A stretch of DNA of 5,780 bases from IMG/VR virus record IMGVR_UViG_2778261316_000002; one strand, written 5' to 3'. Positions 2,031 through 2,980 of this stretch are shown here, one piece after another. The notes under the pieces were generated by a model that saw nothing but the letters and a program-made list of their open reading frames with translations, made no database searches and was not told the origin of the DNA. The DNA comes from a virus. Taxonomy: Duplodnaviria > Heunggongvirae > Uroviricota > Caudoviricetes. The position numbers and the translations under genes were made by a program. The number at the start of each line of letters is the position of its first letter. The first letter of the stretch is position 1.

Positions 2031-2804
2031 TCAAAAATTAGGTGAGTAACGGACCGGGGACATAGCTCCTTTTTTTCTTAATTCATCTGGTATTTTTTTT
2101 CCAAGATAAAGATTTGCTATTTCAGGTGGGGCTTCTCGACCTTCAAAACCATAGCGAGAACTTTGTGTTGCCTCAAAGTCCGGATCCTCGTCCCAGTATT
2201 TCATCGTAGGGAAATTTTCACGTGTTGATTTGAGCCATTTATCAGCAATGAAAACCCCTCGAACGATCCCCCTTACAGTAGCAAGAATGACTTCTGCTTG
2301 GCTGGCGCGAGAGACATTAATGCGCCAGCTAAATCGAACTGCATCATAAAGCTCTGAATCCTTTGCACTTCTGTTAACGGAAATCATTAATGCTTTATGA
2401 TGAAATGTTATGGTTTCGGGTTGATATGTTGCTATCAACTCTTTGACATGCGCGGCGCCGAATTCATTGCTGCCAGCACCATTCATGATATTCGTTAACC
2501 CAGGGTAGGCATCAATAAGTGCTGCTTCGACTTCGTACGCCGTCTTTTCATCAGTCATTCCGTGTCGATGGATGACATGGATAACCTCAAGTCCTGCTAA
2601 CCTTATTTCTCTAATTTGCTTTAGCTTGTTGCTCAGTAACTCGTCATCATCAGTCGCTGCCACTTCACCGCGCATATGGGCAAATACGCGGTTACCTTTG
2701 CCTTTCCCTACATAGAAGGTGCTTCCGTCCCTCGGATCAATCAATCGGTATACATACCAGCCAAGGTGTTCAATTACTCCAGAAGGAAACTCAGTAATAT
2801 CCAT
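2031..2804 (-). CDS. GIY-YIG nuclease-domain protein with an unrecognised C-terminal domain of about 150 aa (candidate defence/restriction-like cargo gene)
   Basis: ATG start at 2804 (cat 2802-2804), 257 aa. N-terminal ...[29 protein letters not shown]...[11 protein letters not shown]...LTNIMNG matches the GIY / YIG / Arg / Glu / Asn catalytic signature. The ORF-track start at 2855 is a TTG codon, so the ATG is preferred. No strong Shine-Dalgarno is visible for either start. Confidence 0.75.
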
Positions 2805-2980
2805 TTTGCAATATCTATGAATTATTTGTGAGACGTATATTAATGAACATTGCAAGGGCTCACAACCAGTAGTGTTGAGAAAACCATCGGGGAAATGAGG
2901 CTAAGTCTTTGAATTTACATAGTACAAAAAAGATACTTTTCCTCATAATGTGAATTAATTTTATGTTTCGTTTGATGATT

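Follow-up and report, generated by a model that had tools for sequence, protein, structure and literature searches.

A GIY-YIG nuclease gene behind pin at an e14-like prophage end is very probably an orthologue of CMoRE (PD-T4-3)

In the e14 prophage of E. coli K-12 the genes stand in the order stfE, tfaE, pinE, mcrA, icdC. The DNA analysed here, a stretch of 5,780 nt that is called the window below, has homology to e14 from 1335 to 1971 with 92.9% DNA identity, and this homology ends one base past the stop codon of pin. Which gene has taken the place of mcrA, and what does its product do? From the sequence alone, the first-pass annotation had proposed a candidate single-gene anti-phage or restriction-like nuclease of the GIY-YIG type in the slot that holds mcrA in e14. 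The remark on the slot is literally true, as the homology stops where e14 runs on into mcrA. The gene is, with a probability of about 95%, an orthologue of CMoRE, first known as PD-T4-3, encoding a modification-dependent nuclease against DNA of the T2, T4 and T6 type. A single-gene, restriction-like anti-phage nuclease has been published for a 98.4%-identical protein encoded at the same locus of O157:H7. The mechanism that had been listed first, a modification-dependent nuclease of type IV that reads bases with its C-terminal domain, matches the published data for that orthologue. The novelty implied by the word candidate is gone: the system is already known, having been found in 2022 as PD-T4-3, and its mechanism and structure were solved by January 2026. 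The discovery value is small, since substrate, cut pattern, autoinhibition and crystal structures were published by 2026 for a protein from the same locus that differs in four residues. The coordinates of the features are collected in Table 1.

Table 1. Features of the locus, phage homologues and cargo found after pinE in other E. coli genomes
Feature	Sequence	Position	Strand	Basis or content
pinE-type serine invertase gene pin, left slot boundary	window	1416-1970	+	Pfam Resolvase and HTH_7; RefSeq annotation; 92.9% DNA identity to e14 pinE
Hairpin between the convergent pin and CMoRE genes	window	1970-2011		arms 1970-1982 and 1999-2011
Cargo cassette of ~1 kb (hairpin, gene, 176-bp upstream region)	window	1971-2980		limits: stop codon of pin and att core
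CMoRE / PD-T4-3 CDS (very probable orthologue)	window	2031-2804	-	257 aa and stop codon; RefSeq WP_000355484.1 at the same coordinates
C-terminal putative modification-sensing domain, residues ~118-257, includes Y127	window	2034-2453	-	boundary approximate
N-terminal GIY-YIG part	window	2469-2804	-	Pfam PF22945 at residues 28-110; core residues invariant in the alignment
Acidic residues D52, D53, D54 and E55 of the autoinhibitory loop	window	2640-2651	-	sequence
Candidate native promoter TTGTGA-17-TAATAT	window	2837-2865	-	weak sigma-70-like consensus match, 8/12; TAATAT at 2842-2837
att scar, 3' 66 nt of tRNA-Ser serU	window	2981-3046	+	exact copy of positions 25-90
Phage homologue, Moabite	L007	3001-3765
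Phage homologue, OBP	L008	1492-2253
Phage homologue, PhiR41_1 (Escherichia)	L009	2956-3723
Cargo after pinE, K-12 and PF9285				mcrA
Cargo after pinE, APEC O78	L012	4043-4540, 5140 onward		165-aa ORF and Ppl defence gene (PADLOC E = 5.9e-105)
Cargo after pinE, EC052	L010	4033-5010, 5509-6183		two ORFs with no Pfam or PADLOC match, then a RES-family gene
Cargo after pinE, AH19B041				no annotated cargo gene; next is the chromosomal pphA

Identity of the gene and its product

The maximal minus-strand frame in the ORF list, 2031-2855, gives 274 aa from a TTG. The first-pass annotation had named this frame with a product of 257 aa, and the ORF and all the motif strings quoted from it are present in the sequence. 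The true CDS starts at the ATG at 2804, and its form of 257 aa is common to RefSeq, the PADLOC profile, the PHROG profile and the crystallised protein. A comparison with the PADLOC defence library had been suggested as a check. It gave a single full-length match, PD-T4-3 (PDLC04031, E = 2.4e-140, residues 1-256 against positions 1-255 of a profile of 256). The profile of PHROG 5356 (phrog_5356) also matches the protein over its full length. In a PDB sequence search there were two full-length matches, the O157:H7 CMoRE (9U75/9U8D, E = 3.7e-172) and the APEC O1 CMoRE (9U7U/9U7Z, E = 1.1e-150). By exact count 253 of the 257 residues (98.4%) are identical to the former, and the identity to the latter is 85.2%; both have the same length of 257 aa and the same two-domain architecture as the protein of the window. 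This is the type I architecture of CMoRE, in which a GIY-YIG domain at the N terminus is joined to a C-terminal sensing domain and no further domain is present.

Is the similarity to the O157:H7 protein that of an orthologue? The paper that deposited the structures gives the O157:H7 CMoRE as WP_000355475.1 (Liu et al., Nat Commun 2026, PMC12923530). In O157:H7 strain PA20 the gene of this protein has pinE on one side and an AraC-family gene on the other. The prophage locus in the window is the same, and the whole locus of pinE, GIY-YIG gene and AraC gene aligns to window 1287-4629 with 96.5% DNA identity. The shared locus and this level of identity indicate that the window carries the orthologous allele, WP_000355484.1. 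Relative to the O157:H7 protein this allele has T51 for A, E55 for D, Q169 for K and N197 for H. E55 and N197 are the residues of APEC O1, while position 51 differs in all three proteins (T here, A in O157:H7, V in APEC O1). Thus Q169 is the sole substitution specific to the allele of the window, with K in both crystallised proteins. None of the four substitutions falls on a residue named by Liu et al.

The domain searches agree with what had been read from the sequence. The first ~110 residues had been called GIY-YIG, and Pfam places PF22945 (LEM-3_GIY-YIG) at residues 28-110 with E = 2.1e-14, with a weak match to PF01541. No motif had been recognised in the C-terminal ~150 residues, and Pfam has no match in residues ~111-257 (about 145 residues) even at E <= 1. 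The C-terminal domain alone matches positions 116-255 of the PHROG 5356 profile, and the protein aligns end to end with the crystallised chains 9U75 and 9U7U. In the protein of the window Pfam sees the GIY-YIG domain only. Why has such a gene been left without a name? The NCBIfam scan of the protein found no family model, and therefore annotation pipelines give CMoRE no functional name. The RefSeq name is still "LEM-3-like GIY-YIG domain-containing protein", and PHROGs lists phrog_5356 as of unknown function. With this gap in RefSeq, NCBIfam and PHROGs, genome scans will keep flagging a common gene as unknown, and it could be relabelled.

Are the functional residues kept? Every residue numbered by Liu et al., namely Y17, Y19, Y31, R80, V92, L96 and Y127, is present in the allele of the window. 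The GIYxY-YIG motif reads W-Y17-V-Y19 ... F-Y31-V-G, and the residues for oligomerisation (V92, L96) and the position of 5hmC contact (Y127) are identical to those of the crystallised CMoRE. The acidic run is DDDE as in APEC O1, while O157:H7 has DDDD. A further alignment joined the protein with the two crystallised ones and with homologues from three phages. Among these E. coli and phage proteins Y17, Y19, Y31, R39, E93 and N105 are invariant, and E91 varies. The first-pass annotation had asked for the catalytic Arg and Glu in such an alignment, and R39 and E93 are found in all of the sequences. Because E93 is invariant and E91 is not, the catalytic Glu within YEVEAAL is most likely E93. The assignments of R39 and E93 come from the alignment, as the text of the structure paper numbers neither.

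Published mechanism and alternative readings

PD-T4-3 was discovered when the E. coli pangenome was screened by functional selection (Vassallo et al. 2022, PMC9519451). The text of that paper prints neither the name PD-T4-3 nor its strain; the source strain ECOR68 and the targets T2, T4 and T6 are given by later papers. Members of the family are described as modification-dependent restriction enzymes of type IV, each encoded by a single gene (Vassallo 2022; Rodriguez-Rodriguez 2025; Liu 2026), and PD-T4-3 was renamed CMoRE by Liu et al. (Nat Commun 2026, PMC12923530), whose results are as follows (PMC12923530). CMoRE binds and cleaves DNA with 5hmC or glucosyl-5hmC, and neither C nor 5mC DNA; T4(C) escapes and T4(hmC) does not. 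The cut pattern is CN11/N9G with 2-nt 3' overhangs and needs two modified sites, and cleavage across the T4 genome depends on modification without a strict sequence requirement. Mutants of Y17, Y19 and Y31 in the GIYxY-YIG motif have no activity. Four consecutive acidic residues in a 15-residue acidic loop autoinhibit the enzyme: the 4A mutant of this loop cuts ordinary DNA, loses the discrimination of self from non-self and is toxic to the host. The tetramer is functionally required, with V92S/L96S dead. [quoted passage not shown] The authors found this domain to have no homologue in sequence or structure, and the closest structure to the nuclease domain is UvrC. The further tests that had been proposed for the gene (a structure, T4 against unmodified T4, catalytic mutants) have all been published for the family.

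How would the copy in the window work? Its identity, intact ORF, conserved functional residues and genomic position are observed directly, and the biochemistry and phage phenotypes are those in the literature of proteins 98.4% and 85.2% identical to it. By analogy, the C-terminal domain would bind DNA with 5-hydroxymethylcytosine or glucosyl-5hmC, as in T2, T4 and T6, and the N-terminal GIY-YIG domain would cut both strands, about 11/9 nt away from the modified base, so that the cut would fall between two modified cytosines ~21 bp apart (CN11/N9G, 2-nt 3' overhangs). The working form would be a tetramer, a dimer of dimers. The loop with four acidic residues would cover the active site and leave unmodified, weakly bound host DNA uncut, and no methyltransferase would be needed. 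The defence would be direct, the phage DNA being destroyed and the cell surviving. Judged from its sequence, the allele probably cleaves 5hmC/5ghmC DNA and protects against T-even phages. Its specificity may also be broader than 5hmC/5ghmC, because a related homologue cuts other DNA as well. This homologue, PD-T4-3Capno, came from a metagenomic selection (Capnocytophaga) and is 48% identical to the reference PD-T4-3. Like the rest of the family it cuts T4 DNA and not T4-GT7 DNA, and its catalytic mutants are dead, but it also cuts Mu DNA with carbamoylmethyl-adenine.

How does CMoRE compare with other known systems? A BLASTP comparison with McrA (EcoKMcrA) shows no homology: the alignment covers 7 residues (E = 2.4). 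In McrA, which belongs to the HNH nucleases, the base-reading domain is N-terminal. Its annotation is that of a methyl-directed or 5-methylcytosine-specific endonuclease, while CMoRE leaves 5mC DNA uncut, and the mcrA gene is co-directional with pin, while that of CMoRE is convergent. For the enzymes of the PvuRts1I/AbaSI family the cut falls between two modified sites, at a distance from the modified C of about 11-12/9-10 nt. This geometry is similar to that of CMoRE; the domains (a PD-(D/E)XK nuclease and an SRA-like domain) are unrelated. The enzymes have their substrates (5hmC and glucosyl-5hmC, not 5mC) in common with CMoRE and serve as the functional comparator of the CMoRE authors; CMoRE differs by its GIY-YIG nuclease and by a sensing domain that has no structural homologue according to these authors. 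The GIY-YIG domains of UvrC (N-terminal) and LEM-3 (Ankle1) have the catalytic fold and core residues in common with CMoRE, which differs in the extra Tyr of GIYxY-YIG, the 15-residue acidic insert, the partner domain and the role in defence.

Then could the gene be an intact CMoRE orthologue that is silent or weakened? It might be underexpressed in a degraded, IS-ridden remnant, or impaired by Q169. The element around it has indeed decayed, with an IS1 insertion, truncated tail genes and an IS3-family remnant. Expression could be low in view of the weak promoter match, the lack of an obvious Shine-Dalgarno signal before the ATG and the precedent of the APEC O1 CMoRE, which was weakly active from its own promoter (PMC12923530). 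Moreover, one phage escaped PD-T4-3 in the native host and not the plasmid-borne PD-T4-3. Against this, the ORF is intact, and of 5,426 complete E. coli genomes 838 (15%) retain a copy of the gene with at least 95% identity. The upstream region is nearly identical to that of O157:H7, whose gene gave ~5-log protection against T2, T4 and T6 from the native promoter, on a fragment whose length is not stated (PMC12923530). Deletion of PD-T4-3 in a native clinical isolate raised the plating of Tevenvirinae phages, and cloned PD-T4-3 protected K-12. A silent or weakened copy is improbable, and we infer that the allele of the window is expressed and has the same specificity as the published CMoRE.

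The nuclease might instead kill the infected cell. Abortive infection is a common mode for stand-alone prophage nucleases, and the toxicity of the 4A mutant fits it. However, cells with the O157:H7 CMoRE grew normally at MOI > 1 (PMC12923530), which means that the defence is direct and not abortive; T4 DNA was depleted while the host DNA reads were unchanged, and the same was reported for the ECOR68 system (PMC12923530). This option, the second of those in the first-pass annotation, is contradicted by the growth curves of the orthologue and was rejected as very improbable. The third option, a free-standing GIY-YIG homing endonuclease of the T4 Seg or I-TevI type that spreads itself, has in its favour the GIY-YIG domain and the label "putative homing nuclease" on the homologues in phages OBP and N1M2, and is hardly credible, since cleavage depends on modification without a strict target sequence across the T4 genome, Pfam finds no NUMOD, zinc-finger or HTH modules even at E <= 1, the C-terminal domain is the one that binds 5hmC in the crystal structure, and the gene stands at a prophage end beside att rather than in or beside a target gene.

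The cassette and its prophage setting

Where does the CMoRE cassette begin and end? The e14 breakpoint at the stop codon of pin sets one limit. Strain H2 has no pin there: the gene comes after one for tail fibre assembly, and the homology covers only window 1970-3002. These limits, taken together with the e14 breakpoint, define a cassette of ~1 kb. As had been noticed at first reading, the gene is convergent to pin with a hairpin between them: the hairpin has 13 pairs with one mismatch or wobble and a dG of -19.8 kcal/mol (z = -3.5; none of 200 shuffles reached this stability). It is likely a bidirectional terminator, although a simple terminator scan of 1900-3700 returned no canonical terminator, the hairpin being without a clean T-run. 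The first reading had also found no methyltransferase adjacent to the gene; there is none within the cassette, and the neighbours are pin and an AraC-family gene ~830 bp away. A type II restriction-modification system was rejected for the lack of a methyltransferase.

The att scar that bounds the cassette on the other side, and between which and the invertase the gene had been placed, is a fragment of serU, and as the att scar closest to the gene it lies 176 bp upstream of the ATG. Within these 176 bp, the -10 of the candidate promoter ends 32 nt before the ATG. A stricter promoter scan of 1900-3700 returned nothing on the minus strand, and this site was the only one from a relaxed scan. Across four genomic contexts, O157:H7 among them, the 176-bp upstream region is conserved and TTGTGA-17-TAATAT is invariant.

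To which element does this end belong? The gene lies in a degraded prophage of ~9.4 kb at thrW, with integrase, early genes, truncated tail genes, pin, CMoRE and the AraC gene. This element is bounded by a 64-nt direct repeat (95% identical; L001 10472-10535 and 19864-19927), the second copy of which is window 4864-4927; the first 46 nt of this copy are the exact 3' end of thrW (tRNA-Thr). CP4-6-like genes follow beyond the element. Inside it, the 66-nt serU fragment is accompanied by ~278 bp of native serU flank (towards yodB), and window 2981-3324 matches the native serU locus, the 3' part of the tRNA and the downstream flank, with 97.7% identity. ARAGORN and Rfam at the gathering threshold found no intact tRNA in the window; the two tRNA fragments were found by sequence reading and by repeat and BLAST comparison. 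It seems that the prophage end with pin and CMoRE reached the thrW element along with host DNA from an earlier integration site at serU. The element is not e14 itself, which was rejected for the wrong att site (thrW) and the different cargo.

Around the cassette there are other remnants. Window 1-1415 opens with the end of an IS1, in the first 96 bases or so, by which one tail fibre assembly gene is cut short. A single gp53-like fibre tip is left, and pin is intact. Inverted-repeat crossover sites of a pin invertible segment were searched for and none was convincing; the pin-associated invertible tail-fibre segment looks dead. The AraC-family regulator (3631-4374, plus strand) has a low GC of ~33% and is most similar to YdeO and GadX, with an NCBIfam match of E = 1.8e-42 that is below the curated cut-off. 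It accompanies CMoRE in O157:H7 and O128:H27, and PatE (z0321, OI-8), a prophage regulator of acid resistance, is a possible orthologue. The AraC-family gene is followed by a C-terminal fragment of an IS3-family transposase with an rve_3 domain (4416-4643, minus strand) and, beyond the thrW repeat, by an intact CbtA-family toxin gene, ykfI, of the CP4-6-like island (5291-5632, minus strand). Some 8 kb beyond the window, the heat-resistance island genes psiE-GI, kefB-GI, trx-GI, hdeD-GI and yfdX2 (L001 28403-35780) adjoin this CP4-6-like island, which is consistent with the origin of the source from a food-transport container.

Distribution, phage homologues and variable cargo

How often does the cassette stand behind pin? 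With a probe for the pin/cassette junction the same junction was found in 577 genomes, and by subtraction the cassette is without pin in roughly 250. Related genes occur in phages too. In tblastn against phage genomes, full-length homologues with 38-46% identity were found in the jumbo phages Moabite and 2050HW of Serratia, vB_ParM-25 of Pectobacterium, Survivor of Pantoea, OBP of Pseudomonas and N1M2 of Klebsiella, and homologues with ~32% identity in two Escherichia phages of ~108 kb. The homologues of Moabite, OBP and PhiR41_1, all of full length, range from 33 to 46% identity. The catalytic Tyr, Arg, Glu and Asn are invariant in the three aligned phage homologues. The phage genes are annotated as hypothetical, "endonuclease" or "putative homing nuclease". 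They may serve in the competition between phages, against those with hmC-modified DNA.

Is the place behind pinE used by other genes? As listed in Table 1, five sampled contexts, which are not a statistical survey, hold different cargo or none that is annotated, and the slot behaves like a small cargo hotspot. The clean exchange of mcrA for CMoRE exactly at the stop codon of pin is an example of type IV enzymes with analogous functions that replace each other in a single slot, and suggests a small hotspot that deserves to be mined. The unmatched ORFs of EC052 are possible uncharacterised defence genes. A wider proposal can be put forward only tentatively, as we hold it somewhat doubtful: that the slot from the pin stop to attR is a cargo-exchange hotspot of e14-family prophages in general, with its unmatched ORFs as candidate defence genes, and that the CMoRE homologues of jumbo phages are possibly weapons against co-infecting hmC-modified phages. 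The contextual points, namely the exact boundaries of the cassette, the presence of a serU att scar in an element at thrW, the different cargo behind pin and the homologues in jumbo phages, are mildly new, and the setting of the cassette may be formally undescribed so far. In strain H2 (L004 9383-17856) the CMoRE cassette is clustered with DarT/NADAR (DarTG), a type II restriction endonuclease with a frameshift and a DNA cytosine methyltransferase. A P2-like prophage comes next, and the cluster looks like a small defence island.
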